Source: a bacterium | GTDB lineage: Bacteria; UBA8248; JACPRG01; G963555815 | NCBI GenBank assembly: GCA_965261595.1 | Contig: CBDHDG010000006.1 | Span: 576,001 to 640,000, forward strand | Length of the DNA stretch: 64,000 nt | Reading direction: 5' to 3' | Shown: piece after piece, positions 38,487 through 60,413 of the stretch | How the letters are laid out: each line of letters opens with the position of its first letter | Numbering within the stretch: the first letter of the stretch is position 1 | Position numbers and translations under genes: made by a program | Notes under the pieces: generated by a model | Told to the model about the DNA's origin: nothing | Databases searched by the model: none | What the model saw: the letters and a program-made list of their open reading frames with translations, nothing else

Positions 38487-38603
38487 GTCATTCCCGCGAA
38501 GGCGGGAATCCAGAAATCCATCGAGGTTCGACACGAAGCAATAGAGTCGTGGAAACGGCCTCCCATCCACATCGGCCTGGATTCCCGCCTTCGCGGGAAT
38601 GAC
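38487..38603. repeat. REP doublet: perfect 27-bp inverted repeat, each arm containing ATTCCC-N8-GGGAAT
   Basis: gtcattcccgcgaaggcgggaatccag (38487-38513) and its exact reverse complement (38577-38603). Confidence 0.9.
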
Positions 38604-38859
38604 CGTCGCGGCGGCTCTACAGCCAGCCGTCCCCCGGAAGCCCGTGCGGACTCCCGTCGGCTCTCAACCGACATCCGCCGCAGTGAAGGGCCTCCAGACA
38701 GCCTGCCATCTTTTTCCGCCTCACATTCGAAATCGTGTGATATCGTGGATGGGCAAAGGACAAACCCCACAGCGCCCGGCCATGGCGCGTGGAGACGCGG
38801 CCCGGTCTCCCCGGCGCGGGGCTCGAGGGCTTCCCTCCTCTCCCGTGAAGGGATTCCCC

Positions 38860-39966
38860 ATGACGAACTCCCCCCGGAGCATCGAAGAAGTCGGCGAGCT
38901 GCTCGACCGGAGCGAGTACATTCCCACGGAGGAGATCTCGACGGCCGTTTTCCTGGCCGAGCGGCTGGGGAAGCCCATCCTCGTCGAAGGCCCGGCGGGC
39001 GTGGGTAAGACCGAGCTGGCGAAGGCCTGGGCGAAGGCCACGGGGCGGGACCTCATCCGCCTTCAGTGCTATGAAGGCCTGGACGAGACGAAGGCCCTCT
39101 ACGAGTGGGAATACGCGAAGCAGATGCTCTATACGCAGCTTCTTCGCGACAAGCTCCAGGACATCCTGGCCGGGACCGGATCCCTGGGCGAGGCCGCCGA
39201 CCGGATCGCCGCCGAGGAGGACGTGTTCTTCTCCGAGCGGTTTCTCCTCCCGCGGCCCCTCCTTCGCGCCATTCAGGCCGAGAAGCCGACGCTGCTCCTC
39301 ATCGACGAGATCGACCGCGCCGACGCGGAATTCGAGGCGTTCCTCCTCGAAATCCTCAGCGATTTTCAGATCAGCGTCCCCGAGCTGGGCACGCTCACGG
39401 CGAAGCAGCGGCCGGCCGTCGTCCTGACGAGCAACAACACCCGCGAGCTCAGCGAGGCCCTCAAGCGCCGGTCGCTCTATGTCTTCATCGACTATCCGTC
39501 CGTCGAGACGGAACTCCGGATCGTCCGGCGGAAGGTCCCGGACCTGGCCCCCGCCCTCGCCCGGCAGGCGGTGGAGGCCGTCCACAAGCTCCGGGGCCTG
39601 GACCTGAAGAAAAGGCCGAGCGTCAGCGAGACCCTGGACTGGGCGAAGACCCTGGTGATACTGAACGCCGAATCCATCGAGCCGAAGGTCCTGGATAACA
39701 CCCTGACGGTCCTCCTGAAACACGAGCACGACCTCATCCGGGCCCGCCGGGCGCTGGCGGCCGAGCGGCGGGCGACGGCCGAGGCCGAGCGGCCGAGCGA
39801 ACCGCAAGCCCCGGAGGGGAGGCGTCCGCCCCGCTCCCCCCGGCCTCCCCGTCCCCCTCGGATCGATCCGGGGGGGTTCGACCCCGAGCGCTTCGACCCC
39901 GAGGGCTTCAACCCCGACATCCTCGGAGGAAACGGACCGGCCGAGGGCGAGACGAATGGAAGATAG
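38860..39966 (+). CDS. MoxR-family AAA+ ATPase (CoxD-like)
   Basis: GPAGVGKT, RLQCYEGLD, LIDEIDRAD and ELSEALKRR motifs. Confidence 0.9.
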   Translation: MTNSPRSIEEVGELLDRSEYIPTEEISTAVFLAERLGKPILVEGPAGVGKTELAKAWAKATGRDLIRLQCYEGLDETKALYEWEYAKQMLYTQLLRDKLQDILAGTGSLGEAADRIAAEEDVFFSERFLLPRPLLRAIQAEKPTLLLIDEIDRADAEFEAFLLEILSDFQISVPELGTLTAKQRPAVVLTSNNTRELSEALKRRSLYVFIDYPSVETELRIVRRKVPDLAPALARQAVEAVHKLRGLDLKKRPSVSETLDWAKTLVILNAESIEPKVLDNTLTVLLKHEHDLIRARRALAAERRATAEAERPSEPQAPEGRRPPRSPRPPRPPRIDPGGFDPERFDPEGFNPDILGGNGPAEGETNGR

Positions 39967-41335
39967 GATCGTCGATTTCGTCGCCGGCCTGCGGGGCGCG
40001 GGCGTTCGGGTCTCGGTCGCCGAGAGCGTCGACTGCCTGAGCGCCGTCGATCACACGGGCGCGCGGGACCGGGAGACGTTCCGGCGCGCGCTGCACATCA
40101 CCCTCATCAAGGACGGAAGCGACCTCCCCAAGTTCGAGCGCCTCTTCCCGCTCTATTTCGGCACGGGGGAGAAACCGCTCCTTCAGCCCTCGGACGTCCT
40201 CACGCCGGAAGAGATGAAAACGCTACAGCGGGCGCTGGGGTCCCTCGACCCCGAGCTTCTGGATCTCCTGCGGCAGCTTCTCGAAGGCCGTCCGCTGGAC
40301 CGGGAAGACCTCGATGCCCTGGGCGAGGCGTCGGGGCTTCCGTCGGCCCGGACCCCGTGGGAGCGGCGCTGGGCCGAGCGGCGGATGACGCGGACCCTGG
40401 GCCTGGAAGAAGCGATGGAGGCCCTGGAGCGGCTCCTCGAAGCCCTGGCCGAGATGGGGATGGGCGAGGAGGGGTTGGAGAAGGTCCGTGAGATGTTCGG
40501 GACCAACCTGGAGGCCCTGGAAGAGCAGGTCCGACATCACGCGGGCGGGAGCGTCGCGCGGCGGATGGCCGAGGAGGCGCGGCGGGACGCGGACCCGGAC
40601 CTGATCGACCGGCCCTTTCGGCATCTCGACGAAGCGGAGGCCGAGGCCCTGCGGGACGAGGTCCGCCGCTTGGCGGCCCAGCTTCGGAGCCGGGCGGCCC
40701 TGCGCCACCGGCGGGGGAAAAAGGGCGTCCTCGACCCCAGGGCCACGCTGCGCGCGAACCTGCGCAACGGAGGCGTGCCGATCGATCTCCGCCTCAAGAC
40801 CCGCCGCCTGAAACCCAAGCTGGTCCTCATCTGCGACATCTCCACATCGGTCCGGCACTGCGCGGAGTTCATGCTGCGGCTGATCTACGAGCTTCAGGAC
40901 CAGGTGTCCCGCGCCCGCAGTTTCGCCTTCATCGACCGGATGGAGGAGATCAGCGGGGCCTTCGAGGAGCATCGCCCGGACGCGGCGGTGGAGAAGGTCC
41001 TCCGGGGGCTTCAGCCGGGCCACTACAACACCGACCTGGGGGCCTCGCTGGCGCATTTTTTCGACCGGTCCCTGGACGCCGTGGACGGCCGGACAACGGT
41101 GATCTTCGTGGGGGACGGCCGGAACAACTTCAACGACCCGCGGCTCGACCTGGTGGACGGACTCCGCCGCCGCGCCCGGCGCATCGTCTGGATGAACCCG
41201 GAGCCCCGGCCCCTTTGGGGAACGGGCGACAGCGACATGCCGGCCTACGCCCCGCTCTGCGACCACGTCCACCAAGTGAGCACCCTGGCCGAGCTGGCCG
41301 CCGCCGTCGACCGGCTCTTCCTCCCCGGAAGGTGA
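39956..41335 (+). CDS. CoxE-like VWA-domain protein
   Basis: CDISTSV MIDAS motif, VGDGRNN, WMNPEP and WGTGDSDM; overlaps the CoxD-like gene. Confidence 0.9.
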   Translation: MEDRIVDFVAGLRGAGVRVSVAESVDCLSAVDHTGARDRETFRRALHITLIKDGSDLPKFERLFPLYFGTGEKPLLQPSDVLTPEEMKTLQRALGSLDPELLDLLRQLLEGRPLDREDLDALGEASGLPSARTPWERRWAERRMTRTLGLEEAMEALERLLEALAEMGMGEEGLEKVREMFGTNLEALEEQVRHHAGGSVARRMAEEARRDADPDLIDRPFRHLDEAEAEALRDEVRRLAAQLRSRAALRHRRGKKGVLDPRATLRANLRNGGVPIDLRLKTRRLKPKLVLICDISTSVRHCAEFMLRLIYELQDQVSRARSFAFIDRMEEISGAFEEHRPDAAVEKVLRGLQPGHYNTDLGASLAHFFDRSLDAVDGRTTVIFVGDGRNNFNDPRLDLVDGLRRRARRIVWMNPEPRPLWGTGDSDMPAYAPLCDHVHQVSTLAELAAAVDRLFLPGR

Positions 41336-41609: not shown

Positions 41610-42479
41610 GTGTTCTATGCCCAAATGCTGATCAACAGCCTTCTGCTCGGCGGCATCTACGCGTGTGTGGCCATCGGCTTCTCCCTGGTGTGGGGGGTCA
41701 TGAACATCCTCAACGTCCTTCACGGGACGTTCCTGATGTTGGGCGGCTACATTACATTCTGGCTGTTCCAGCTCTACAGCATCGACCCCTTCATCTCGAT
41801 GCCCCTCACAATGTTGATCATGTTCGGCGTGGGCTATCTGACCCAGTATTGGGTGATCAATCTGGTCATCCGGGCCCCGTTGTTCATCACGCTGATCTTG
41901 ACCTTCGGACTCGAATTGTTCGTGGTGAACATGGCGCTCTATTTCTGGACGGGGGACTACCGGGTCGTCCAGACCGCATACGCCGAGTTCTCCTTCCAAG
42001 TCGCCGGCCTGGTCGTTCCCCTCATTCGCCTGTCGCTTTTCTTCATGGGGTTCCTGCTGACGGGACTTCTGTTCTGGTTCATGGCCAAGACCCGGACCGG
42101 GCGGGCCATCCGCGCCACCCGGATGGATCTGGACGGGGCGCGCCTGATGGGGGTCAACATCGGACGAATTTACGCCATCACCTTCGGTCTGGGCGCGGCC
42201 TTGGCGGGGGCGGCGGGCTCGCTCGTGAGCGTGGGGTTCTCCATCTCGCCCGTGATGGACCTCGAATTCCTGGCCAAGTCCTTCGTCATCTGCATCATCG
42301 GCGGCCTGGGCAACATGATGGGCGCCCTCGTGGGGGGGCTCTTGCTGGGACTCGTCGAGAACTTCGGGGCCTATTATTTCGGCCCCGGTTATCAGAACGC
42401 CATCGGATTCATCATCATGGTCCTGGTCCTGTTCATCCGGCCCGAAGGGTTGCTGGGGAAGGCGGGGTACGCAAAGTAA
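41610..42479 (+). CDS. Branched-chain amino acid-type ABC transporter permease (LivH-like)
   Basis: GFSLVWGVMNILN, TGRAIRA, IIGGLGN and RPEGLLG motifs. Confidence 0.92.
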   Translation: MFYAQMLINSLLLGGIYACVAIGFSLVWGVMNILNVLHGTFLMLGGYITFWLFQLYSIDPFISMPLTMLIMFGVGYLTQYWVINLVIRAPLFITLILTFGLELFVVNMALYFWTGDYRVVQTAYAEFSFQVAGLVVPLIRLSLFFMGFLLTGLLFWFMAKTRTGRAIRATRMDLDGARLMGVNIGRIYAITFGLGAALAGAAGSLVSVGFSISPVMDLEFLAKSFVICIIGGLGNMMGALVGGLLLGLVENFGAYYFGPGYQNAIGFIIMVLVLFIRPEGLLGKAGYAK

Positions 42480-43472
42480 ATGTTCAGGCCCTGGACGAAA
42501 TTTCAATTGACGGTCTTTGCGCTGGGACTCGTCCTGTTTGCCTTGATTCCGGTTTTCGAGCCCAATGACGAGATCCGGAAATGGTTCGACGTTCTTCTCA
42601 TCGCCATCCTGGCCATGAGCTGGAACTTCATCGGCGGGCTGACCGGATACCCCTCCTTTGCGCCCGCCGCCTTCTTGGGGATAGGTGCCTACATGACGGC
42701 CATCTTCATGAACGCGGGGGTCGGTTTCTTCCCCACGCTGCTCATCGGGGCGTTCGCCGGCGGGCTGGTGGCCTTCGTATTGGGCGTCCCGATTCTTCGC
42801 CTGAGAGGGCACTATTTCGCGATCGCCACCTACGGCGTCGCGGAGGCCATCCGCGAGCTGGCCGAAAATTTCGAGATCACGGGCGGGGGAGAGGGAATCA
42901 ACCTGCCGCTGATCAGCGGCGGCCCCGACTTCTTCACGCGGTACTTCTATTACGCGATGCTCGGGGTCGCGCTCTTGTCCTTTCTGACCCAGTATTGGGT
43001 CACCCGAGGCCGCCTCGGCTTCGGTCTGGTCGCCATCCGGGAGAACGAAGACGCCGCTGCGATGCTGGGCGTGGAGACCACCAAGTACAAGATTTACGCC
43101 TTCGTCCTCTCGGCGATCTATCCGGCCATGGCGGGGGGGGTGTACGCCTACCGCGCGGCCTTCCTGGAGCCGATCGACGTTTTCGACGTCCTGTTCTCCA
43201 TCCGGGCCATCGTCATGTCGCTCATCGGGGGGGCCGGGACCATCATGGGTCCCGTCCTGGGCGCCGCTTTCATCGAGCTCGTGAACGATTATCTCTGGGG
43301 AGCGTTCCTGGAGTTCCACAGCGCGTTCCTCGGGATCGTCATGGTCGTGGTCGTGATCTTCATGCCCAAAGGGTTCTTCTCCCTCTACCAGGGATTTCGG
43401 GCCAAGGGGAAGGGGAGCTGGAAGTCGATCGGGCCGGTTTTGCTCGAGAACATCCGGCGATACCGCGTATGA
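42480..43472 (+). CDS. ABC transporter permease (LivM-like)
   Basis: LRLRGHYFAIAT, AIRENEDAA and GGAGTIMGP motifs. Confidence 0.92.
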   Translation: MFRPWTKFQLTVFALGLVLFALIPVFEPNDEIRKWFDVLLIAILAMSWNFIGGLTGYPSFAPAAFLGIGAYMTAIFMNAGVGFFPTLLIGAFAGGLVAFVLGVPILRLRGHYFAIATYGVAEAIRELAENFEITGGGEGINLPLISGGPDFFTRYFYYAMLGVALLSFLTQYWVTRGRLGFGLVAIRENEDAAAMLGVETTKYKIYAFVLSAIYPAMAGGVYAYRAAFLEPIDVFDVLFSIRAIVMSLIGGAGTIMGPVLGAAFIELVNDYLWGAFLEFHSAFLGIVMVVVVIFMPKGFFSLYQGFRAKGKGSWKSIGPVLLENIRRYRV

Positions 43473-44233
43473 GCGGAGAAATTCTTCTCGAAGGCAAAGG
43501 CATCACAAAAGGATTCGGGGGACTGACCGCGGTCTCGGACGTGGATTTCAACGTCCGCAAGGGCGAGATCCTCGGTCTCATCGGCCCGAACGGCGCAGGC
43601 AAGACCACCCTGGTCAACTGCATCACCGGGGTCTTCCCCATCTCGAAAGGGACGCTCATCTTCAACGGAACCCGTCTCGACGGTCTGAAACCCCATCAGG
43701 TGACGCGCCTGGGCATCGCCCGCACCTTCCAGATCGTTCAGCCGTTTCCGAGCCTGTCCGCGCTCGACAACGTCTTGATGGGCGCGCTGTTCGGCCACGC
43801 CCACAATGAAAGCACCATCACCCGCGCCAGAGAGATCGCCAGAGAGAAATTGGAATTCGTCGGTCTTTCCCCGATGGCGGATCGGGTCGCCGGGGAGCTC
43901 ACGCTGGTGGAGCGGAAACGACTCGAGCTGGCGAAGTCCCTGGCCACGAGCCCGGAACTGCTGCTCCTGGACGAGGTCAACGCGGGGCTGAACCACACCG
44001 AGACGCAGGAGGCCATCGACCTCATCCGCAGGGTCCGGGACCAGGGGGTCACCATCCTGATCATCGAGCACGTCATGAAGGTGATCATGGGGCTTTCCGA
44101 CCGGGTGTTCGTCCTTCATCACGGTGAAAAAATCGCGGACGGCAACCCACGGGACGTCACCAGCGACAAGGAGGTGATCCGTGCGTATTTGGGGGACAAA
44201 TTCGCCGCCCGCCTTGCTGAAAGCGGCGGATGA
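43469..44233 (+). CDS. ABC transporter ATPase (LivG-like)
   Basis: GPNGAGKTT, LLLDE and VIRAYLG. The true start is the ATG overlapping the livM-like stop. Confidence 0.92.
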   Translation: MSGEILLEGKGITKGFGGLTAVSDVDFNVRKGEILGLIGPNGAGKTTLVNCITGVFPISKGTLIFNGTRLDGLKPHQVTRLGIARTFQIVQPFPSLSALDNVLMGALFGHAHNESTITRAREIAREKLEFVGLSPMADRVAGELTLVERKRLELAKSLATSPELLLLDEVNAGLNHTETQEAIDLIRRVRDQGVTILIIEHVMKVIMGLSDRVFVLHHGEKIADGNPRDVTSDKEVIRAYLGDKFAARLAESGG

Positions 44234-44262
44234 GGATCGAATCGCCGGTGAGGGGCCATTCA

Positions 44263-44994
44263 ATGCAAACCACGAACGGATCGCCGCTCCTGAAGGTCGA
44301 GGGCCTCGAATCTGGATACGGAGACATCCAGATTCTTTGGGGGATCGATCTCGAGGTCCATTCCGGTGAGATTATCGCCATTGTCGGAAGCAACGGCGCC
44401 GGAAAAACAACCTTTCTGCGGACCCTCTCCGGCATCTTGACGCCGACAGGAGGCTCTTTCGTATTCGACGGCGAGCCGATGGAGCGCGCAACCTCCGATC
44501 AAATTGTCGAGCAGGGCATCTCTCATGTCCCCGAGGGGCGCCGGCTCTTTCCCGCCATGTCCCTCGAAGACAACCTCCTGATGGGGGCCTATGCCAGGAA
44601 GCTCTCCGCCAAGGAGCTGCAGCCGGACATCGAACGGGTCTTCCAGCACTTCCCCGTTCTGCGGGAGCGGCGGGATCAATTGGCCGGCAGCCTGTCCGGC
44701 GGCGAGCAGCAGATGTGCGCCATCGCCCGCGGGATGATGGCCTCCCCCAAGCTCTTGCTGATCGACGAGCTTTCCCTGGGCCTTGCCCCCCGCATCGTGG
44801 AAGAGCTTTCCGTTATCGTGCAGGGGATCAACGCCGAGGGCGTCACGGTCATCCTGGTCGAGCAGGACGTCTTGACGGCCTTCGAGCTGGCGGGCCGCGC
44901 CTATGTTTTTGAAACCGGCCGAATCACCATGTCAGGGCCCAGCCGGGAATTGATGGAGAACCCGGAAATCAAGCGGTCCTACCTGGGCATGTGA
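44263..44994 (+). CDS. ABC transporter ATPase (LivF-like)
   Basis: GSNGAGKTT, LSGGEQQM and DELSLGLAP motifs. Confidence 0.92.
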   Translation: MQTTNGSPLLKVEGLESGYGDIQILWGIDLEVHSGEIIAIVGSNGAGKTTFLRTLSGILTPTGGSFVFDGEPMERATSDQIVEQGISHVPEGRRLFPAMSLEDNLLMGAYARKLSAKELQPDIERVFQHFPVLRERRDQLAGSLSGGEQQMCAIARGMMASPKLLLIDELSLGLAPRIVEELSVIVQGINAEGVTVILVEQDVLTAFELAGRAYVFETGRITMSGPSRELMENPEIKRSYLGM

Positions 44995-45150
44995 AAACCG
45001 CGCCGGCATCACTCCCGGAAGCCCTGTCCGGGGGCTTTCCCGGGGTCTGACTTCATTGTTCATTCCCCACGAACCTGATATGATCGCTCCATGCATTCCA
45101 GGCGCGGCGCAATTCCCGATGAATCCACGCCGAAAGGGCGGCTCCCGCCG

Positions 45151-47478
45151 ATGACGCCCCTCTCCCTGGTTGGAACAGGCGCACCCCGGATCGACGGCCC
45201 CGGCAAGGCGACGGGGGAGACCCCATATCTCTCCGATATGCAACTGCCGGGAATGCTTCACGCGCGAATCCTCCGCAGCCCCCACGCCCACGCCCGCATC
45301 CTGAAGATCGACACCGCCCGGGCGGCCTCCGCCAAGGGGGTCCGAGCCGTTATCACGGCGGACGACACACCCAAGATCCTTTTCAGCTTCATGCCCGAGC
45401 TGGCCGACAAGCTGCCCCTGTGCGACGAGAAGGTCCGCTTCATCGGGGACGAGGTCGCCGCCGTGGCCGCCGACACCGAAGACACGGCGGAAGAAGCCCT
45501 GTCTCTCATCCGGGTGGATTACGAGCCGCTGCCCGCCGTCTTCGACCCGAAAGAGGCCGTCCGGGACGACGCCCCGCTCGTGCATGAGGGGAAGGCGCGG
45601 AACATCTGCATGGAACTCCACAAGATGTTCGGCGACCCGGAGAAGGGTTTTGCCGAGGCGGACCACATTGTGGAGGACTCCTACGACACCCGGCGCGTCG
45701 CCCATTGCCCCCTGGAAACCCGGAGCTTCATCGCCCGGTGGGAGCGCGCGGGGCATGACTCCCGGCTCAAGATCTGGGCGTCCACGCAGGCCCCGCATGT
45801 TCTCAAGGAAGACATCGCCCGGTGCCTCGGGATGGACTCCCGGCGGATTCAGGTCATCAAGCCGGCCACCGGCGGGGCCTTCGGGAACCGGATGATCATG
45901 GAGATGGGGGCGCCCAGCGCCGTGATTTTGGCGGAGAGAACCGGCCGACCCGTGAAGCTGGCCAACACGCGGACCGACGAATTCCAGATCTCCCGAACCC
46001 GTTTTCCGTATCACATCGAGCTGAAAACCGGATTCCGCTCCGACGGACGCCTGGTGGCCCGCGCGATCCGGATTGATGTGGACAGCGGGGCCTACTCCGA
46101 CAAAGCCGGCCCCACGCTGAGCTTCTCGGGCGCCATGTTCGCCGTTCTCTACAACGTGCCCCACATCCAATTCGACGGCTACGTCGTCTACACCAACCAA
46201 CAACCCGGAACGGCCTTCCGGGGCTTCGGCTGCCCCCAGGTCACCTTCGCCGCCGAGACCCAGATGGACCGCATCGCGAAATTCCTGGAGATGGACCCGC
46301 TGGAGCTGCGCCGGATCAACGCCAACCGGGCGGGGGAGACAAGCGCCTCGGGCGTCACGCTCCCCACCTGCGGCCTGGAGCAATGCATGAAGGAAACCGC
46401 CCGGGCGGCCGGTTGGGCGGAGCACCGGAAAGGACGCAATGAGAATTCCCGCGGCGGCGGCCGCTACCGCCGGGGAATGGGCCTCGCCGTGATGGTCCAC
46501 TCGGGCGGCGGGTCCCGGTATTACGGCTTCAACTCCGCGGGCAGCTTCATCAACGTCTCCCGGGACGGCCAGGTCTTCCTGACCACCCCCGCCAACGACA
46601 CGGGCCAGGGCGCCCTCACCGTGATGGCCCAGGTGGCCGCCGAAGAGCTCGGCGTCCGGATGGAGGACATCCGGGTCGTCTCGGACGACACGGATCTCGT
46701 GCCTTACGACGTCGGAAACTACGGCAGCCGGACCACCTGGGTCTGCGGCCAAGCGGCGAAGGCGGCTGGAGAGGAAGCGCGCCGGCAGATCTTCGAGGCC
46801 GTCGGCAAAGAATGGGAGGTCTCGCCGGAAGACCTGCGCGCCGCCGATTCGAGGATCTTCGCCGTGGGGCGCCCGGAGCAAGGCATGAGCTTTCAGGACG
46901 CGGCCTCAATGATTTACAACAACAACGGCGTCCCCATCACGGCCGAGGGCCGGTTCGAGGACGTGGAGGCGGCCGGCCACGTTGACTGGAGCAACCAGAT
47001 CCCCAACTTCTCCACCGGCTGCCACCTCGTCGAGGTCGAGGTGGATATGGAAACCGGGGCCGTGAGCCTCCTGCGGTTCTTCGCCGCGCACGATGTGGGC
47101 AAGGCGGTGAACCTGCGCGGCGTCGAAGGACAGATCGAGGGCGGCGTCGGCCAGGGTCTCGGCTACGCCTTGTTCGAGGAGCTGGTCCAGGACGCGGGCG
47201 CGGCGGTTAACCCCTCGTTCGTCGACTACAAGATCCCCTGCGCCCTGGACATACACGGCATGGAGACCTTCGTCGTGGAGGACGCGGAGCCGGGGGCGCC
47301 GCTCTACGGCGCCAAGGGGGTCGGCGAGCCGGGCTTGGTCCCGACGGCGGCCGCGGTGGCGAACGCCATCGCCGACGCGACGGGCGTCCAGCTCCACGAG
47401 CTGCCCATGAATCCCGAAAGGGTGTATCGGGCCCTGAGGGAGGCCGAATCGGTCAAGGCGCCCCAAGAAGTCGTTTGA
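45151..47478 (+). CDS. Xanthine dehydrogenase-family molybdopterin-binding (large) subunit
   Basis: LRSPHAHARI, GGAFG, AFRGFG, VEGQIEGG and GAKGVGEP motifs. Confidence 0.9.
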   Translation: MTPLSLVGTGAPRIDGPGKATGETPYLSDMQLPGMLHARILRSPHAHARILKIDTARAASAKGVRAVITADDTPKILFSFMPELADKLPLCDEKVRFIGDEVAAVAADTEDTAEEALSLIRVDYEPLPAVFDPKEAVRDDAPLVHEGKARNICMELHKMFGDPEKGFAEADHIVEDSYDTRRVAHCPLETRSFIARWERAGHDSRLKIWASTQAPHVLKEDIARCLGMDSRRIQVIKPATGGAFGNRMIMEMGAPSAVILAERTGRPVKLANTRTDEFQISRTRFPYHIELKTGFRSDGRLVARAIRIDVDSGAYSDKAGPTLSFSGAMFAVLYNVPHIQFDGYVVYTNQQPGTAFRGFGCPQVTFAAETQMDRIAKFLEMDPLELRRINANRAGETSASGVTLPTCGLEQCMKETARAAGWAEHRKGRNENSRGGGRYRRGMGLAVMVHSGGGSRYYGFNSAGSFINVSRDGQVFLTTPANDTGQGALTVMAQVAAEELGVRMEDIRVVSDDTDLVPYDVGNYGSRTTWVCGQAAKAAGEEARRQIFEAVGKEWEVSPEDLRAADSRIFAVGRPEQGMSFQDAASMIYNNNGVPITAEGRFEDVEAAGHVDWSNQIPNFSTGCHLVEVEVDMETGAVSLLRFFAAHDVGKAVNLRGVEGQIEGGVGQGLGYALFEELVQDAGAAVNPSFVDYKIPCALDIHGMETFVVEDAEPGAPLYGAKGVGEPGLVPTAAAVANAIADATGVQLHELPMNPERVYRALREAESVKAPQEVV

Positions 47479-47547
47479 CTAATGGAGGGAAATCCGGGTA
47501 CTGTCATTTTCACTCAAAATGAACTTCTGAACAGGAGGGGGAGACCA

Positions 47548-48777
47548 ATGAAACGTTGTGGTTTGTTCCGAAGCTTGGTTGCACCCGTGTTGGCCGCGGC
47601 CGTTCTGATCGCCGGCGCGGCGTTTGTCGGAGACCGGGCGCAGGCGGCCATGGACGTCATCAAGTTCGGCGCCGCCCTGCCGCTGACCGGTCCGCTGGCC
47701 ACCGAGGGAAACAAGCAGAAAGCCGGTTATGAGATCTGGAAGGACCTGGTGAACAGCCAGGGCGGCATCAATGTCGGCGGCAAGAAGATGAAGGTGGAGA
47801 TCAGGTACTACGACTACGAGAGCAAGACGCCGGTCGCCAGCAAGCTTTACGAGCGGCTGATCACAAAGGACAAGGTGGACTTCCTGTTCGGGCCGTTCGG
47901 AAGCGGGGCCACCGCGTCGGTCGCCGCCTTGACGGAGCGTTACAAGATTCCGATCATCGCGCCGACGGCCAGTTCGGCGAAGCTGTACGCACGGGGATAC
48001 TCCTACCTCTTCGGCCTCCTGGTGCCCAACAACTTCGTCTCGGACAGCTTTTTCGAGTTGGTGACCTCCCAGAACCCCCGCCCGAAAACAATGGCCTTCG
48101 TGACGCGCAACGATTTCTTCCCCAAGGTCATCACGGGCGTTTTCCAGAATGCCGCCAAGAAGTACGGCGTCAAGGACATCTACTACGCCAAGTTCCCCAA
48201 AGACGCCAAGGACATGTCCACCTGGCTGACGATAGTCAAGAGCAAGAACCCCGACCTTCTGATGGTGGCCGGCTACCTGGGCGACTTGATCCTGGTGACA
48301 AAGCAGGCCAAGGAGCTCGGCGTCAATCCCAAGGCCATCTTCATGACCGCCGGACCGGTTTATTCCCAGTTCACCGAGGCCCTGGGCAAAACAGCCGACG
48401 GCATCACGACGGCCTCCTGGTGGGCGGACACCCTGGATTACAAAGGGCGCATCATCGGAACGCCGGACGATTTCAGCAAGATGTGGAGGAAAAAGACCGG
48501 CAAGGAGGCCGATTACGTCTCCGCCGCTTCCACCGCCAGCGGCGTGGTCTACCAGATCGCCATCGAGAAGGTGGGAAGCCTGGATAAGAAAAAAATCCGG
48601 GCTGCCCTGGCCGCGATGAACGAGATGACGTTCTACGGCCGGGTCAAGTTCAATAAGAACGGCCAGAACATCGGGAGCATCGTCCCGGTGATCCAGATCC
48701 AGAAGGGGAAGCGGCTTCCCGTATCCCCCAAGAACATGGCCCAGGGCAAGTATCAGTATCCCAAGCCGAAGTTCTAA
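47548..48777 (+). CDS. ABC transporter substrate-binding protein (LivJ/K-type)
   Basis: Signal peptide, IKFGAALPLTG, VDFLFGPFGS and TFYGRVKF. Confidence 0.9.
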   Translation: MKRCGLFRSLVAPVLAAAVLIAGAAFVGDRAQAAMDVIKFGAALPLTGPLATEGNKQKAGYEIWKDLVNSQGGINVGGKKMKVEIRYYDYESKTPVASKLYERLITKDKVDFLFGPFGSGATASVAALTERYKIPIIAPTASSAKLYARGYSYLFGLLVPNNFVSDSFFELVTSQNPRPKTMAFVTRNDFFPKVITGVFQNAAKKYGVKDIYYAKFPKDAKDMSTWLTIVKSKNPDLLMVAGYLGDLILVTKQAKELGVNPKAIFMTAGPVYSQFTEALGKTADGITTASWWADTLDYKGRIIGTPDDFSKMWRKKTGKEADYVSAASTASGVVYQIAIEKVGSLDKKKIRAALAAMNEMTFYGRVKFNKNGQNIGSIVPVIQIQKGKRLPVSPKNMAQGKYQYPKPKF

Positions 48778-48789
48778 GCCGCAATCCCG

Positions 48790-48830
48790 AGCCCCCGCCC
48801 CTCTCTTGGGGGCGGGGGCTTTTTTATTTT
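48790..48830 (+). terminator. Rho-independent terminator
   Basis: 12-bp GC stem agcccccgcccc / ggggcgggggct followed by a T-run. Confidence 0.85.
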
Positions 48831-48946
48831 CGGGCGTCGCGCGCGAGAAGGGGGAACTGTAGCCCGGGAGCCCCAGGCCTGGAGGGCCTCGGGCCCGGAG
48901 GGCTCCGGCCCGCTCCATCCGCCACGCCCGCTCCGGAGAGACGCCG

Positions 48947-49780
48947 ATGACGACGATCCGCCTGCTGGAAGAGGAGGAGATCCGCCGCGCCGCGCCCGAA
49001 ACCGTCGATCAGATCCTGGCCGCCGAGAAGGCCCGGTGGGGGATTCCCAAGCTCGCCAACATCTGGCGCTGCATGGGACACCAGCCCGAGTACCTGGAGG
49101 TCACGTGGAAGAAGGCGAAGTCCGTCCGCCAGCCCGGGAAATTGTCCAACCTGACGCGGGAGATGATCGCCTCGGCCGTCTCGGCCGCCAACGGGTGCCG
49201 CTACTGAACGGACTCCCACGTCGCCGCCGTGATGCGGATGGGAAAGGGAGAACGGGCGGTTACGGAGCTGATATCCATCGTGGACCTGGTGAGCGGGCTT
49301 TCCAAGGCCGCGCTCGGAGCGGGGCTCTACGCGCCGGAGGCGGAGGGGGTGACACCGCCGGGGATGATCCTGGGGCTTGTGGACGAGGAGAGCGCCAAGG
49401 GCCGGGTCGCCAAGGTCTTCGGGGAGATTCGAGAGCGCGAGGCGGAGCGTCTCGGACGGGACACCATACCGCTCTTTTGGCGGGCCATCGCCCACCGGCC
49501 GCTCTACCTCGAAGCCGCCTGGAACCGCTCGAAGGTTCTGCTCGCCGAGGGCGAGATCACCCTCAAGGAGAAGGAAATCCTCGGCTACACCGTCGCCGCC
49601 AACGTCGGCAGCCACTACTTCGGCCACGAGCACGCCACCGCCCTGCGCCGGCTGGGGATGGACGACTCCGCCCTGGTCGAGGTCCTGGCCGTCGTGGACT
49701 ATTTTGAAGGGCTCAACCGCGTGAGCGAGGGCATGGACATCGAGTCGGATATCGCGCCGTATCGGGAGTATGAGAAATGA
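48947..49780 (+). CDS. AhpD/carboxymuconolactone-decarboxylase-family selenoprotein (tandem domains; TGA 49205-49207 read as Sec)
   Basis: The two ORF-track pieces are in frame. Read-through gives VSAANGCRY-U-TDSH, the AhpD C-x-x-C-x-x-x-H motif, and a hairpin follows the TGA. Confidence 0.8.
49214..49243 (+). promoter_or_regulatory. Candidate bacterial SECIS element
   Basis: tccca...ccgc-[cgtgat]-gcgg...tggga. The apical loop starts 20 nt after the UGA and has GU near its 5' side. Confidence 0.6.
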
Positions 49781-50212
49781 TACCTTTGGGATTTGGGGGA
49801 TCGTGACCAATACCGCCACAGAACTCTAAACCAAATGCGAGTTGGCCCATCCATCTTCCATATACGCTTTTTCAATCGAAGACCCGCGTCCATGCTAACG
49901 CTGCCCAATGCATGTCAACCAGCCACACCAACCAGCTCATGCCAACCGGCTATATTGAAGAGATATGCTAAATCCTATCTTTCATCCACAGGTTTCTCCT
50001 TCCACTTTACCTGATCATCCCCCCAAAACTTAGGCATCCAAAATCTCATTTCTTTGTTATTAAAATCGCCATGTTTGACAGTGGACTTACCCCGGTTTCG
50101 TGGAGAGTTAAGCACTTGGGTTTTCAGGGTGTGCGTTGTTGTCTCCTCCCCCGCTCTAGGGTTTTGTTGGACACTCGATTGATCCATGATTCATGGAGAA
50201 AGGGGTGTCGCG

Positions 50213-50599
50213 ATGAACGAACAAAAGCAAGAGGGGGCTTTGGCGGAGGGCGCCCGCAGGGCGAACGGAGCCAAGGCCCCAGGGCATCGCAGTGAGCGGG
50301 GTCGGTTCTCCTGCCAGCGCAAGCGGGAGGCGGTCCTGCGTCTTTTGCGGGGCGAGAGCCTGGAGACGCTCTGCCGCGAGTTGGGCACGACAGCGGCTCG
50401 GCTTTCCGCCTGGCGCGAGGCGTTCCTTCGCGGGGGCGAGGCGGCGCTCAAAGCCCGCCCGGCGGATGAGCGGGACGAGGAGAACGCCCGGCTCAAGGCC
50501 AAGGTGGGCGAACTCACGATGGAGGGCGAGGTCCTGCGGGAGAAGATCGACCGCCTGGAGGCCGGCCGCCCTTTAGCCGGCAGGAGGTGGAGGCGATGA
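50213..50599 (+). CDS. IS3 transposase OrfA (inner element)
   Basis: HTH region KREAVLRLLRGE...WREAF and leucine zipper LKAKVGELTME. Confidence 0.85.
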   Translation: MNEQKQEGALAEGARRANGAKAPGHRSERGRFSCQRKREAVLRLLRGESLETLCRELGTTAARLSAWREAFLRGGEAALKARPADERDEENARLKAKVGELTMEGEVLREKIDRLEAGRPLAGRRWRR

Positions 50600-51504
50600 G
50601 TCAGGCCCGCTTCACCTCCACGGGCAGAGCCTACGGCCTGAAGCGGGTGTGCGCCCTTTGGGGCTTGGCGCGCTCCACGGTCTACGCGCAACGGCGGCGA
50701 GAGGCGGTCCCCGTTCATGAACGCCCCACGCCCCATAAGCGCGGCCCTGTGGGCCCGTGCACCGATGCGGAACTCCTCGGCCACATCCGGCAGGTCCTGG
50801 AGGACTCTCCCTTCCATGGCGAGGGCTACCGCAAGGTGTGGGCGAGGCTGCGCTTCGCGGGCATCCGCACCAGCAAGGAGCGGGTGCGTCGCCTGATGCG
50901 GGAGGCGGGGCTTCAGGCCCCCCACCGGGTGGGCAAACCCCGAGGTCCCAAGGCCCACAACGGGACCATCCGCACCGAGCGGCCCGACCGAATGTGGGGC
51001 ACGGACATGACGACGACGGTGACCACCGAGGAGGGGGTGGCCTCGGTGTTCGTGGCGGTGGATCACTGCTCGGTGGACTGCGTGGGGATCCATGCGGCCA
51101 AGAGCGGCAACCGCTTCGAGGCCCTGGAGCCGATCCGGCAGGGGGTCGCCGAGCGCTTCGCCGGCTTGGAGGCGGACGTCGCCGAGGGGCTTAAAGTTCG
51201 TCACGACCACGGCCCCGCCTATCTGTCCGATGACTTTCAGCGGGAGATCGCCTACCTGGGCATGACCAGTTCGCCCAGCTTCGTGCGGGCGCCCGAGGGA
51301 AATGGCTACTGTGAGTGGTTCATCCGCATCTTGAAGGAGAATCTCCTGTGGGTGCGCTCTTTCGCCACCGTAGAGGAACTGCGGTGGGCGCTGCTTGAGT
51401 TCAAGAACCTGTACAACCATCATTGGATTCTCGAGGGCTACGGCTACCGAACGCCGGCCCAGGCAAGGCAGGAAAAACTCGCTCAAGTTGCGGAGGCCGC
51501 ATGA
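50596..51504 (+). CDS. IS3 transposase OrfB (inner element)
   Basis: GYRKVWARL, MWGTD, RHDHG and rve integrase core. Confidence 0.88.
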   Translation: MSQARFTSTGRAYGLKRVCALWGLARSTVYAQRRREAVPVHERPTPHKRGPVGPCTDAELLGHIRQVLEDSPFHGEGYRKVWARLRFAGIRTSKERVRRLMREAGLQAPHRVGKPRGPKAHNGTIRTERPDRMWGTDMTTTVTTEEGVASVFVAVDHCSVDCVGIHAAKSGNRFEALEPIRQGVAERFAGLEADVAEGLKVRHDHGPAYLSDDFQREIAYLGMTSSPSFVRAPEGNGYCEWFIRILKENLLWVRSFATVEELRWALLEFKNLYNHHWILEGYGYRTPAQARQEKLAQVAEAA

Positions 51505-51516
51505 GGTCGAATACCC

Positions 51517-52380
51517 TCACCCGAGTGTCCAATAACCCAGGGGCGGTCCACTCCTTTCGTAGTTAACGGGTGACAGGTTGTCGATGGAGGAGTGCCGACG
51601 ATGCGGGTTGTAGAAGCCCTCGATGAACCCGAACACCTCCATGCGCGCCTCGGCCCGGGTGCGGAAACTGTGGCGAGCGAGGAGCTCGCACTCCAGCGTG
51701 GCGAAAAAGCTCTCACACAGCGCGTTGTCGTAGCAGTCCCCGACCGAACCCATGGAGGGACGCCCGCCCGCCTGGCGGCAGCGCTGCCCAAAGGCGACCG
51801 AGGTGTACTGCGTGCCCTGGTCGGAGTGGTGGATGACGGCCCGGGGACGGCGCTTATACAGCGCCATGTCGAGCGCGTCGAGCACCAACTCGGCCCGCAG
51901 GTGTGTGGCCATCGACCACCCCACGATGCGCCGGCTGAACGCATCGAGCGCCACGGCCAGATACAAAAACCCCGCCCATGTCGGAACGTAGGTGATGTCG
52001 GCCACCCACAGCCGGTCGGGGGCCTCGGCCGTGAAGTTGCGGTCCACCAGATCAGGGGCCGGCCGCGCCTCCTGCCGGCGCTGCGTCGTGCGCGCTCCCT
52101 TGCGCCGACTGACGCCCGCAAGTCCCGCCCCACGCATCAGCCTGGCGACGCGCTTGCGGCCCACACGCACTCCCTCAGCCTCCAGCTCGGCATGGACGCG
52201 CGGCACGCCGTAAGTCCCCCGAGAACGCTCGTGGATCGCCTGAATGCGTTTGGTGAGCGCCCGATCGGTACACGAGCGGGCACACGGCGCGCGCCTGCGC
52301 CACGCGTAGTAGCCGCTGGAGGAGACGCCCAGCACCCGGCACATGGTGGCGGTCCGATACATGGCCTGGTTCGCCCTCAC
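51517..52380 (-). CDS. IS3 transposase OrfB (outer element; last codons replaced by the inner IS end)
   Basis: TYGVPRV, LWVADITY, HHSDQG, CESFFATLE and YNPHRRHS motifs. Confidence 0.9.
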   Translation of the reverse strand: MRANQAMYRTATMCRVLGVSSSGYYAWRRRAPCARSCTDRALTKRIQAIHERSRGTYGVPRVHAELEAEGVRVGRKRVARLMRGAGLAGVSRRKGARTTQRRQEARPAPDLVDRNFTAEAPDRLWVADITYVPTWAGFLYLAVALDAFSRRIVGWSMATHLRAELVLDALDMALYKRRPRAVIHHSDQGTQYTSVAFGQRCRQAGGRPSMGSVGDCYDNALCESFFATLECELLARHSFRTRAEARMEVFGFIEGFYNPHRRHSSIDNLSPVNYERSGPPLGYWTLG

Positions 52381-55337: not shown

Positions 55338-57032
55338 CCCGCATTTCCCATATGGATGATAATTTTTAACGCCCCGAAGGCCGTTTTCTCGTGTAAAATC
55401 AAGGTGTTGGCCTCTCCCTGCCATCATCTTGCGAGGGGACCCGATGGGTGAAGCGAAAAAGAGGCCGTTGAGGCTCCAATTCGACGGTCGGCTCAGGCTG
55501 GAGTTTCACGGAGCAAAGGTTACGAGTGACGCCGGTTTGCTTGCCTATCGTGAACTGGATGAGGTGTTGGGGCTGACGAAGGCGGCCGAGGGGTTTCTGT
55601 CCGATTCACGGACGGGCGGGAACACCCGGCACAGCCTCACCGCTTTGGTGCGCCAGTCGGTCTACAGCCGCCTGGCAGGATATAAAGACACCAATGATGC
55701 CGAGCGGCTCTGTGTCGATCCCGCCATGCGTCAGGTGGTTGGGGGGCGAGCGAAGTATCACACCGCTGCCTCCACCAGCCAGATGAGCCGATTCGAGACG
55801 CAGACCCTCACCCGGCCCCTTAACCCCTCAAGGCGCTGAGCGGTCTGCCCGGTGTGTTGGTGGATCGTGTCCGCAAACGCAAGCCGATTCGCAAGCTGAT
55901 CCTGGACATGGACAGTTCGGTCAGCCCGACCCACGGTGAGCAGGAAGGCTCTTCCTACAACGGCCACTTCGGCTGCACCTGCTATCACCCACTGTTTTGC
56001 TTCAACCAGTTTGGCGATCTGGAGCGGGCGCTGTTGCGCAACGGCAAGGTCCACAGCGCTGATGACTGGTGGTCTGTATTGGAGCCGGTGGTAGCTCGCT
56101 ACCGGGATGCGAAGGTCTGTCGGTTTTTTCGAGGCGACGCGGCATTTGCCAAGCCGGAGGTGTACCGATACCTTGAGGCGGAGGGCTACTCCTATGCGAT
56201 TCGGCTTCCGGCCAACGCCATCTTGTACAGGGACATCGAATGCCTTCTGACCCGGCCGGTTGGCCGACCGCCCAAAAGGCCCATTATCTTCTACCACAGC
56301 GTCTCCTATCAGGCGGCTAGTTGGGAGAAGCCTCGCCGGGTGGTGGTGGCGGTCGAGTGGCACCAGGGCGAGTTGTTTCCAAGAGTCAGCTTCATCGTGA
56401 CCAACCTGCACTGGCGGGAAGAGAACGTCGTGAGGTTCTACAACCAGCGTGGGACGGCGGAGCAGTGGATCAAGGAGGGCAAGTACGCCCTGAACTGGAC
56501 GCGCCTGTCCTGCCACGGCTTTGAAGAGAACCAGGTTCGCTTGCAACTATTTGCCTTGGCGTACAACCTGGCAAACTTCCTGCGGCGGCTGGCGTTGCCC
56601 AGAGCGGTGAAGCACTGGTCGCTGACGACGTTACGCGAGAAGCTGATTAAGATTGGGGCCAAGGTGGTCACCCACGCCCGGCACACCACCTTCCAGATGG
56701 CCGAGGTGGCCGTGCCGCGTCAACTGTTCAGGGCAATCCTTGAACGAATTCGACGGTTGTGGTTACCGCCTCCCGTACCAGATACCGGATGACGGAGCAG
56801 ATGGCCCGGAAGCTTAGTGACGTGGTGGAGACGGGGGATCAGTCTGTGCCGAACTCCCCTGAGTGTGCCGGTAGAGCTGGGTTTTCAAGGGATTGCGGCT
56901 TTAGGACGGCCGTTGCCCCTCGATTGAGCAGAGGGTTCTGCAAAGAGACCCTGAATCTGTAGTAAAATGGGGTACTTTGATGACACAGGAGGACCGCAGG
57001 ATGGCTAAGAGTGGTCATCTGGGAAATCCCGG
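55338..57032 (+). mobile_element. IS1380-family element; transposase (55444-56792) frameshifted near 55825
   Basis: TSDAGLL, LDMDSS, FRGDAAF, YNQRGTAEQWIKEGK and LREKLIKIGAKVV motifs; IRs cccgcatttcccatatg / ccgggatttcccagatg. Confidence 0.9.
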
Positions 57033-58066: not shown

Positions 58067-59248
58067 ATGATGCTGGACATGAAAAGGAGAGTTGGGATGC
58101 CGACCGACGCGAACCGGGGCTTGGCCCGGGCGGCGGCGGAGTGGCTCGTCAGGCTCCTCATCCCCGTGATTATCTCCGGGTGCGTGACCGCCCCGAACCC
58201 CCTGGGCGCACAAGAGATCCGGGAGAAGATCCGCCTCCCGAAGGGTTTCCGGATCGAGGTCTTCGCGAAGGGGCTCAGAAGAAAAGCGCGCTTCATGGCC
58301 TTCGACGCCAAGGGGAACCTCTACGTGACGCTGGCCCGATCCGGACGGGTCGCCGTCATGCCCGACCGGAACAAAGACGGCCGGGCCGATTCGGTCATCC
58401 CCTTCGCGACAGGTCTGCGGTCGCCCCACGGGATCGACGTCCGGGACGGATGGGTCTACGTCGGCGAAACCGACGGCGTCGTCCGCCTCAAGGACCTGGA
58501 CGGGGACCTGCGGGCCGACCTGAAGGAAAAAGTCGTGGGCGGACTTCCCACAGGCGGCCATTGGACCCGGACCGTCCGCTTCGGCCCGGACGGCAAGCTC
58601 TACGTCTCCATCGGCTCAAGCTGCAACGTCTGCGTCGAGACCGACCCGCGCCGGGCGGCCGTCGTCCGCTACACGCCCGACGGAAGGGAGGAGGAGGTCT
58701 TCGCCGCGGGCCTGCGCAACTCCGTCGGCATCGCCTGGCGCCCCGGAACGAGCGAGTTGTGGGCGGTGAACAACGGCCGGGACTGGCTGGGGGACAACCT
58801 GCCCCCGGAGGAGATCAACATCGTCCGCCCGGGACGCCACTACGGCTGGCCCTACTGCTACGGAAACCGCGTCCCCGACGCCAAATACGGCCGGAAAGAC
58901 TTCTGCGCCCGGAAGACCGAGCCGCCCGTCTTCAAGATGCAGGCCCACTCGGCCCCCTTGGGGCTGGCCTTTTACACCGGCAAGATGTTCCCCGCCGATT
59001 ACCGGGGTGACCTCTTCATCGCCTTCCACGGCTCCTGGAACCGGACCGTCCCGACGGGCTACAAAGTCGTCCGGGTCCGGATCAAGGACGGGAAACCGGC
59101 GGGGATCGAAGACTTCGCGTCCGGCTGGCTCGACGGCTTCAAGGTCCACGGCCGGCCCACGGACGTGATCGTCGGACCCGACGGCGCCCTGTTCGTCTCG
59201 GATGACGGCGCGGACCGGATCTACCGGATCTCGTATGCCCCGCGCTGA
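58067..59248 (+). CDS. Sorbosone / PQQ-dependent sugar dehydrogenase-family beta-propeller protein
   Basis: GHWTR, SIGSSCNVC, GLRNSVG, YGWPYCY, AHSAPLGL and HGSWNR motifs; start uncertain. Confidence 0.88.
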   Translation: MMLDMKRRVGMPTDANRGLARAAAEWLVRLLIPVIISGCVTAPNPLGAQEIREKIRLPKGFRIEVFAKGLRRKARFMAFDAKGNLYVTLARSGRVAVMPDRNKDGRADSVIPFATGLRSPHGIDVRDGWVYVGETDGVVRLKDLDGDLRADLKEKVVGGLPTGGHWTRTVRFGPDGKLYVSIGSSCNVCVETDPRRAAVVRYTPDGREEEVFAAGLRNSVGIAWRPGTSELWAVNNGRDWLGDNLPPEEINIVRPGRHYGWPYCYGNRVPDAKYGRKDFCARKTEPPVFKMQAHSAPLGLAFYTGKMFPADYRGDLFIAFHGSWNRTVPTGYKVVRVRIKDGKPAGIEDFASGWLDGFKVHGRPTDVIVGPDGALFVSDDGADRIYRISYAPR

Positions 59249-60413
59249 AACTCCCGGACCGGACCAGAAGACCCTCCTTCGCATCCAAAGGGCCCTGTTG
59301 GCGTGGTACGGCCGGGAAAAGCGGGACCTCCCCTGGCGGCGCACCCGGGACAAGTACCGCGTCTGGGTCTCCGAGGTCATGCTCCACCAGACCCGCGTAG
59401 AGACCGTCATCCCCTACTACGAACGGTTCCTGAAGCGGTTTCCCGATGTCGGCACACTCGCCCGCGCCCGCCTGGAGAGCGTCTTCAAGCTCTGGGAAGG
59501 TCTCGGCTACTACGGGCGGGCGCGAAACCTCCACCGGGCGGCGAAGGTCGTGGTTCGGGAGCACGGCGGACGTCTTCCGGCCGACCCCGGTCGGCTTTCC
59601 CGCCTCCCCGGAATCGGCGCGTACAGCGTGGGGGCCATCCTCAGCATCACCGAGGATCTCCCCCTGCCGGCCGTGGACGGGAACATCCGGCGCGTGCTCT
59701 CCCGGCTGTTCGGCGTGGACGCCGACACGGCCGAAGCCGGAACCCGCCGGCTCGTCGAGGCGCTCGCCAAACGGCTCGTCTCGGCCGGACGGCCCCCCCG
59801 GTCGGGCGACGTGAACCAGGCCCTGATGGACTTGGGGGCGGGGATCTGCGTCCCCCGAAACCCGAAGTGTCCGCGCTGCCCGCTCCGGCCGCGGTGCGCG
59901 GCCCGGATCGGCGGCGCGGAAAAAGAGATCTCCGGCGCGCTTCCCAAACCGGCCCCCCGGGCGGTCGCGTTCTCCTGCGCGCTGGCTCGCCGCCGGGACG
60001 GGAAGGTGCTGTTGGCCCGGAACCCGGCGGAGGGTCTTTTCGGCGGTCTTTGGGAGCTCCCCGGCGGCGCGTGCCCGCCGGGAGAATCCCCCGCCGACGC
60101 CCTCCCCCGGCTGCTCCTCGAGCGGGCGGGGCTTCGGGTCCGCGCGGGCGAGGCCCTGGGGGAATTCACGGCGACGCTGACCCATCGGCGCATCACCTAT
60201 CACGTCTTCAAGGTTGCGGGCGTCCGGGCCGAGGGCGCGCCCGCGGCCTACGCCGAAATCCGGTGGGTCCGGCCGGACGCCCTGGCTCGGCTCCCCTTCT
60301 CGAAAGCCCAGCGCGGAATTCTTGAAAAACTCCTCCCCTCCCCCTCCCGGCCTGACGGCTTGGCGCGTGAGCCGGAAGGAGGCGCGGGACCAGCGTCCCG
60401 GGGGGGGCTTTGA
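59235..60413 (+). CDS. mutY: A/G-specific adenine glycosylase MutY
   Basis: RDLPWR, VWVSEVM, WEGLGYY, HhH LPGIG, VDGN and [4Fe-4S] C-x6-C-x2-C-x5-C, plus a NUDIX-like C-terminus. Confidence 0.93.
   Translation: MPRAETPGPDQKTLLRIQRALLAWYGREKRDLPWRRTRDKYRVWVSEVMLHQTRVETVIPYYERFLKRFPDVGTLARARLESVFKLWEGLGYYGRARNLHRAAKVVVREHGGRLPADPGRLSRLPGIGAYSVGAILSITEDLPLPAVDGNIRRVLSRLFGVDADTAEAGTRRLVEALAKRLVSAGRPPRSGDVNQALMDLGAGICVPRNPKCPRCPLRPRCAARIGGAEKEISGALPKPAPRAVAFSCALARRRDGKVLLARNPAEGLFGGLWELPGGACPPGESPADALPRLLLERAGLRVRAGEALGEFTATLTHRRITYHVFKVAGVRAEGAPAAYAEIRWVRPDALARLPFSKAQRGILEKLLPSPSRPDGLAREPEGGAGPASRGGL

Follow-up and report, generated by a model that had tools for sequence, protein, structure and literature searches.

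A two-domain AhpD/CMD-like gene with an in-frame UGA, very probably encoding a selenoprotein, beside a xanthine-dehydrogenase-family gene cluster

Genes and features of the locus

The window, by which we mean the whole stretch of 64,000 nucleotides analysed here (C6:576001-640000), belongs to a genome of 6.17 Mb in 7 contigs. The region of interest contains an 86-aa open reading frame (48947-49207) and a 183-aa one (49229-49780), which share one frame and have the TGA at 49205-49207 as their sole separator. The original prediction had claimed this arrangement together with a 277-aa read-through product carrying C84-x-x-U87-x3-H91, and both were reproduced from the sequence, the motif of the 277-aa product being ANG-C84-R-Y-U87-T-D-S-H91. 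The genes and signals in front of this region are the following.

38599-39966, plus strand: CoxD-like AAA protein, upstream
39956-41335, plus strand: CoxE-like VWA protein, upstream
41610-44994, plus strand: two Liv-type permeases and two ABC ATPases, upstream
45091-47478, plus strand: Mo-binding large subunit of the xanthine-dehydrogenase family (MoCoBD_1 257, MoCoBD_2 255, Ald_Xan_dh_C 108 bits)
47482-48777, plus strand: Liv-type periplasmic binding protein, directly upstream of the UGA-containing gene
48789-48831, plus strand: intrinsic terminator after the binding-protein gene, a 14-bp stem followed by a T run
48935-48940, plus strand: Shine-Dalgarno-like GGAGAG, 6 nt 5' of the ATG, a putative signal read from the letters

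The CoxD-like and CoxE-like genes (38599-41335) head the transporter/molybdoenzyme cluster; genes of these two kinds are usually linked to active-site maturation in CO-dehydrogenase-type molybdoenzymes. The stem of the terminator (48789-48821) consists of 14 pairs, 11 of them G-C, and is followed by the tail TTTTATTTTC; this strong terminator sets the UGA-containing gene apart from the upstream operon. The gene itself has the following parts.

48947-49780, plus strand: coding sequence of a very probable two-domain AhpD/CMD-like selenoprotein, 277 aa, with the terminal stop TGA at 49778-49780
49085-49309, plus strand: domain 1, CMD/AhpD core, residues 47-121, with E72, C84, U87 and H91
49196-49198, plus strand: Cys84 codon TGC, the putative resolving partner in C-x-x-U, in a column invariant in the protein alignment A4
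49205-49207, plus strand: in-frame UGA, very probably read as Sec87, as suggested by 42/42 loci with TGA, Cys-containing homologues and the Sec machinery
49217-49219, plus strand: His91 codon
49505-49732, plus strand: domain 2, degenerate CMD repeat, residues 187-262, where S222 and F225 replace Cys and Sec and H229 is retained

Conservation and decoding of the in-frame UGA

The checks and refuting conditions given with the original prediction included a search of the genome for selA, selB, selC and selD, an alignment of homologues at the position of the TGA, and reads in which the TGA would turn out to be an error. The first of them revealed that the selenocysteine (Sec) machinery is complete. 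The genome contains selA (550 bits), selB (390 bits), which adjoins selA, the tRNA-Sec gene selC (72 bits; classified by ARAGORN as tRNA-SeC with the anticodon TCA) and selD (330 bits; locus L010, C5:89297-90265, minus strand), all of them above the curated cut-offs. One in-frame TGA was recognized in selD as well, and since the gene carries this codon, the selenophosphate synthetase of this organism is probably a selenoprotein too.

For the second check a six-frame search was carried out in 41 genomes (that of the window and 40 relatives), 31 of which gave a match, and all of the 34 best matches (E <= 7e-18, 29-100% identity) contained an in-frame TGA. It is placed at residue 87 within N-[AG]-C-x-Y-U-x-D-S-H in 20/20 orthologous loci (L023-L042), and while the terminal stop varies in the orthologues among TGA, TAA and TAG, the internal TGA never does. 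The same column is occupied by TGA in 11/11 paralogous loci, two of which belong to the window genome. A cross-phylum scan with one genome per species added loci from records labelled Methylomirabilota/Rokubacteria, Limnocylindria and Dehalococcoidia, in which the motif is intact with TGA in 11/12 cases, down to 27% identity, and the twelfth locus, L056, is degraded with the TGA still present. Weak Bacteroidales loci (L059-L061; 30% identity, residues 174-238 only) enter no count. Overall, the aligned loci have TGA at this column in 42/42 cases, with 0 TAA, TAG or sense codons. The distant homologues, which have one or two domains and are 21-41% identical (n = 14), show Cys at the U87 column in 13 cases and Ser in 1. 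The protein alignment runs across the UGA, and coding conservation was found on both of its flanks.

The TGA is no one-off sequencing error, since it is repeated in contigs assembled from runs of two other studies. Contigs of these two runs, which may include the source of the window, cover the whole of 48900-49800 and agree with the window, the TGA included, except at the one position 49466. Furthermore, a 153-nt contig of a metatranscriptomic library, which may derive from DNA, covers 49105-49257, the UGA and the following hairpin included, with zero differences.

On these grounds it is very probable that 48947-49780 is one gene, in which the UGA at 49205-49207 is decoded as Sec and which encodes a 277-aa AhpD/CMD protein of two repeats. 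A changed genetic code, where UGA would stand for an ordinary amino acid (Trp or Gly) and residue 87 would not be Sec, accounts for a frame that is open once the TGA is read through, which is the sole point in its favour; it is nevertheless hardly credible. The orthologues swap the terminal TGA of the gene for TAA or TAG, thus TGA functions as a stop here, the homologues have neither Trp nor Gly but Cys at the U87 column, and the full Sec system including tRNA-Sec is present in the genome.

The public gene calls correspond to another reading, according to which the TGA is a real stop and the locus is a pseudogene or a pair of small genes of 86 aa and 183 aa. The expectation that standard gene callers would split the gene was borne out: its closest database relatives are stored as fragments of 86 aa or about 180 aa. 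The public protein collections contain halves only, the best 15 of 27 matches being 169-187 aa long with 60-67% query coverage, and an exhaustive HMMER search of a representative library (1.84 billion representatives, 754 matches at E <= 1e-3) yielded as best matches the 181-aa C-terminal and the 86-aa N-terminal halves. The GTG at 49229 can start the second open reading frame, but it sits in the loop of the hairpin described below, without a ribosome-binding site. It is also unlikely that a stop splitting the C-x-x-[C/U]-x3-H active site would have been fixed at one column in 42/42 loci, down to 27% identity, with both flanks conserved. According to the structural model the protein would fold as one unit, the predicted helix 85-97 crossing the junction at high confidence. 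A truly degraded copy, L056, differs from the other loci by its deletions and the loss of its frame. We therefore regard a real stop as very improbable. The reading as a single Sec-containing gene corrects a recurrent error of the public databases, as every close relative found, among the best 15 of 27 matches and in the representative library, is such a fragment.

The degraded locus L056 (JBKPAK010000193.1) shares a contig with L048, 14 kb away, and is a second copy of the gene in that Methylomirabilota-labelled genome. Its motif has shrunk to N-A-U, and deletions and a later loss of the frame were observed. It shows what a real pseudogene looks like in this AhpD-like family.

The window genome has three more genes of AhpD-like type in which the U of CxxU is written as UGA. 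L071 (C4:199603-200406) has two domains, with a Mo-subunit gene on one side and a PhzF-like gene on the other. L072 (C2:154503-155126) is ended early by a TAG near residue 217, and its counterpart L069 is whole. L073 (C6:1478413-1478556) is a single-domain form with N-G-C-E-Y-U and a 6-bp hairpin with a GGUCU loop. In the paralogue L063 (G004:C75) residue 228 is followed by one more TGA in frame (…YFIRYFVD-TGA), far short of where the protein usually ends; the gene may be truncated, or a second codon may be recoded. Matches of the six-frame search with two TGA codons had suggested that relatives might contain a second Sec, and this was rejected, the second TGA being the terminal stop.

The hairpin directly after the UGA

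A SECIS-type hairpin was proposed within the coding sequence, starting 9 nt after the UGA; its parts are listed below, numbered also from the U of UGA as position 1.

49214-49243, plus strand: SECIS-type hairpin within the coding sequence, suggested by comparative evidence
49214-49218 with 49239-49243, plus strand: plausible lower stem, positions 10-14 with 35-39
49224-49227 with 49234-49237, plus strand: upper stem CCGC/GCGG, positions 20-23 with 30-33
49228-49233, plus strand: apical loop CGUGAU, positions 24-29, with an invariant G at 49229

The hairpin had been predicted at these coordinates with its loop 20 nt after the UGA; the coordinates and the spacing held and the element proved to be conserved in relatives, while folding energy by itself lent it no support. 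For 49205-49265 the z value was -0.92, 32/200 shuffles folding equally well, and the values of -0.68 for 49214-49243 and of -1.29 in a further calculation were not significant either. ViennaRNA favoured other pairings on the single sequence, and an Rfam scan of 48000-51000 (E <= 10) gave no match at the hairpin. Since the folding energy is no better than chance, the reality of the hairpin rests on comparison. A stem-loop directly 3' of the UGA and a G in the apical loop are present, as in a bacterial SECIS element.

All 31 orthologous sequences preserve the four upper pairs, almost without variation. In the covariation test on the orthologues by themselves 143/500 shuffles were equal on most measures, and RNAalifold retained the 4-bp upper stem only. 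The lower 5-bp stem is paired in 85.8% of the cells with no two-sided change, and it is considered plausible.

More variation was available in the alignment of orthologues and paralogues (A3; 42 sequences, 41 distinct), from which the single-domain paralogue L073 is excluded, its hairpin being in another register. In these 42 sequences an upper helix of five pairs (49223-49227 with 49234-49238), the fifth pair being 19:34 (49223 with 49238), is paired in 91.7% of the cells, compared with 18-51% when the partner strand is slid. The pair 21:32 occurs in four standard types (CG 37, UA 2, AU 1, GU 1), and its covariation score was reached by 0/500 shuffles, in a set of related sequences and for this one pair only. 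One partner of this pair is the third base of an Ala codon and the other the second base of a codon for Arg, Gln or Leu, so that a replaced residue on one arm goes together with a silent substitution on the opposite arm. At position 25 the loop has a G in 42/42 sequences. The gene thus offers a clean worked example of a SECIS element embedded in coding sequence, where an Arg/Gln/Leu change on one arm is accompanied by a synonymous change of the Ala codon on the other.

Codon usage points in the same direction. Among 46 conserved codon columns of at least 3-fold degeneracy in 29 orthologues, only Ala93 (GCC, 29/29) and Arg97 (CGG, 29/29) lack synonymous variation, and these two codons, which were singled out post hoc, form arms of the stem. 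Low synonymous variation in the zone of residues 88-100 was not significant as a whole (Mann-Whitney p = 0.13). The wobble bases of the loop at A3 columns 33 and 36 (49228 and 49231) co-vary, with GCC-GUG in 14/29 and GCG-GUC in 15/29 orthologues, which may be due to descent or to a constraint acting on the loop.

Domains, relatives and proposed role

The Pfam CMD model (PF02627, cut-off 23) recognized two stretches with 77.5 bits in the whole protein; taken by halves, the scores were 54.6 bits for the N-terminal and 26.8 bits for the C-terminal one, both above the cut-off. Aligned with each other without gaps, the halves agree in 28% of 119 residues (E 1e-20), and this alignment places C84 on S222, U87 on F225 and H91 on H229, consequently the second repeat is without both redox residues. 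The claim that the second domain repeats the fold and has no Cys was thereby confirmed, and the picture of one active and one non-catalytic domain agrees with the internal repeat and with domain 2 having lost both redox residues. In the protein alignment A4, from which L067 is excluded as its start was not found, conservation is complete or reaches at least 90% at E72, C84, residue 87 (entered as C87) and H91.

With a query that carried C instead of U, the AhpD core model of NCBIfam, TIGR00778, was passed (51.2 vs 27.8), and none of the six family-level models (TIGR01926, NF041238, NF041047, NF053654, TIGR04030, TIGR04169) was. The best of these was TIGR01926 with 64.1 against a cut-off of 81.8; the scores were 44.5 against 175 for NF041238 and 18.2 against 110 for NF041047. 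The AlphaFold2 model, based on an alignment of 36 sequences, is all-helical with 13 helices (pLDDT 93.6, pTM 0.91), and the C-x-x-U motif stands at the start of its helix 85-97. The top Foldseek matches (E <= 1e-3) all belong to the AhpD/CMD or the related haloacid-dehalogenase fold.

The catalytic residues of M. tuberculosis AhpD (PDB 1knc, 1gu9), E118, C130, C133 and H137, are in register with E72, C84, U87 and H91, and the all-helical AhpD fold is common to both proteins (TM 0.73 to 1knc, normalised to the target), whereas their sequence similarity is low (core E 5.5e-4) and Sec replaces Cys133 in the window protein. Since U87 aligns with Cys133, which we take to be the attacking cysteine of M. 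tuberculosis AhpD, Sec occupies the nucleophile position. No AhpC partner gene is evident beside the UGA-containing gene in the window. The best solved relative of domain 1 is the structural-genomics entry 2ouw, an 'alkylhydroperoxidase AhpD core' of Rhodospirillum rubrum (138 aa), with a profile E of 7.6e-29 over alignment positions 1-130, an rmsd of 2.8 A over 125 columns and 34% identity; its C-S-Y-C corresponds to C-R-Y-U of the window protein, but it is a single-domain Cys form. Over the full length the best structural match is 2q0t, a putative gamma-carboxymuconolactone decarboxylase subunit of Burkholderia xenovorans (about 250 aa), with TM 0.62/0.69 over 261 columns, yet with 18-19% identity and without Sec.

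AhpD-like selenoproteins with a CxxU motif became known in 2005. The original prediction had assigned the protein to an established class of AhpD-like selenoproteins, which agrees with the CxxU families in the published tables. The GOS ocean metagenome table (PMC2398784) contains 299 Sec sequences of 'AhpD-like 1' (COG2128) and 70 of 'AhpD-like 2' (pfam02627), and ranks such proteins among the commonest known prokaryotic selenoprotein families. An 'AhpD-like protein TIGR01926' and a 'CMD-like protein PF02627' appear in the table of a 2026 review (PMC13188914), and AhpD-like selenoproteins are listed also in a 2022 review (PMC9312934) and in BSepDB (PMC13326102). The published AhpD-like and CMD-like CxxU selenoproteins share with the window protein the CMD/AhpD domain, Sec in place of the second Cys, the existence of Cys homologues and a SECIS that follows the UGA immediately; the window protein differs in having two CMD repeats per chain, the second of which is redox-dead.

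As the AhpD-like CxxU class is already known, the gene is a new, uncurated addition to it. It represents a two-domain branch, likewise uncurated, which may already be listed in BSepDB or in survey supplements. Sec, never Cys, was found in every locus of this branch examined, and a Cys form of the window protein more than 41% identical was not found in the public protein collections or the representative library.

The following mechanism may be proposed by analogy with AhpD. SelB and tRNA-Sec, guided by the hairpin, would insert Sec at residue 87, and in selenium shortage translation would be expected to stop at the UGA. Sec87 could attack an oxidised substrate, which may be a peroxide, a sulfenic acid or a disulfide, and Cys84 would resolve the product to a selenenylsulfide, helped by a Glu72/His91 relay as in AhpD. 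The predicted enzyme would thus cycle between selenol/thiol and selenenylsulfide as a peroxide- or disulfide-reducing oxidoreductase. The second repeat would most likely be a built-in, non-catalytic structural partner of the first, filling the role that a second subunit has in single-domain CMD proteins. In this lineage the selenoprotein might work together with the neighbouring xanthine-dehydrogenase-type molybdoenzyme and the Liv-type uptake system.

The linkage to molybdoenzyme genes was followed in relatives by local tblastn and Pfam scans. The binding-protein gene is directly upstream in 20/20 orthologous loci (L023-L042), and genes of FAD and 2Fe-2S subunits are directly downstream in 15/20 of them. 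In L035 the Mo subunit follows downstream; in the window and in L045 and L046 it precedes the binding protein. L045 and L046 belong to a group of duplicates of counted loci (L043-L046) used for their longer flanks only. In L063-L065 and L071 the paralogue group, 38% identical to the window protein, is flanked by another Mo subunit on one side and a PhzF-like gene on the other. Within the class of the window organism, to which the 20 orthologous loci belong, the gene always follows a Liv-type binding-protein gene, in or beside a xanthine-dehydrogenase-family cluster, which is a new point. Among the ORFs scanned at 28-38.6 kb and 52-64 kb of the window there was none for a FAD or 2Fe-2S subunit.

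Two ideas on function may be drawn from this arrangement. One is that the selenoprotein is a dedicated accessory of the adjacent xanthine-dehydrogenase-family molybdoenzyme and not part of a general peroxide defence of AhpC/AhpD type; as such it might clear the peroxide of the molybdoenzyme, keep its cofactor or thiols reduced, or act on the substrate. The constant place behind the binding-protein gene (20/20), the FAD and 2Fe-2S genes that follow (15/20), the Mo subunit in L035, the window, L045 and L046, and the paralogue that also follows a Mo subunit in four loci all speak for such a role. Kin share gene order, however, so that these linkage counts overstate independence, neighbours of this kind (molybdoenzyme or binding protein) were present in 0/12 cross-phylum loci, and in the window the strong terminator separates the gene from the cluster. 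The accessory role is accordingly put forward as a tentative possibility, on balance an unlikely one. The other, broader idea, which we hold to be doubtful, is that in this class the two-domain Sec-AhpD is a fixed and always selenium-dependent part of a molybdoenzyme/Liv-uptake module, two paralogous lineages having each been recruited to a molybdoenzyme of their own; if true, molybdenum hydroxylases would have here an accessory protein of a new type. The conserved place beside xanthine-dehydrogenase-type genes is in itself a testable lead to the function of the family.

Downstream of the gene, the segment 49781-59201, about 9.4 kb between the UGA-containing gene and a mutY-like gene (59202-60413), is rich in insertion elements.

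50186-51504, plus strand: IS3-type pair
51517-52380, minus strand: integrase
55854-56792: DDE transposase

In L024, L026 and L045 the mutY-like gene stands directly after the UGA-containing gene.
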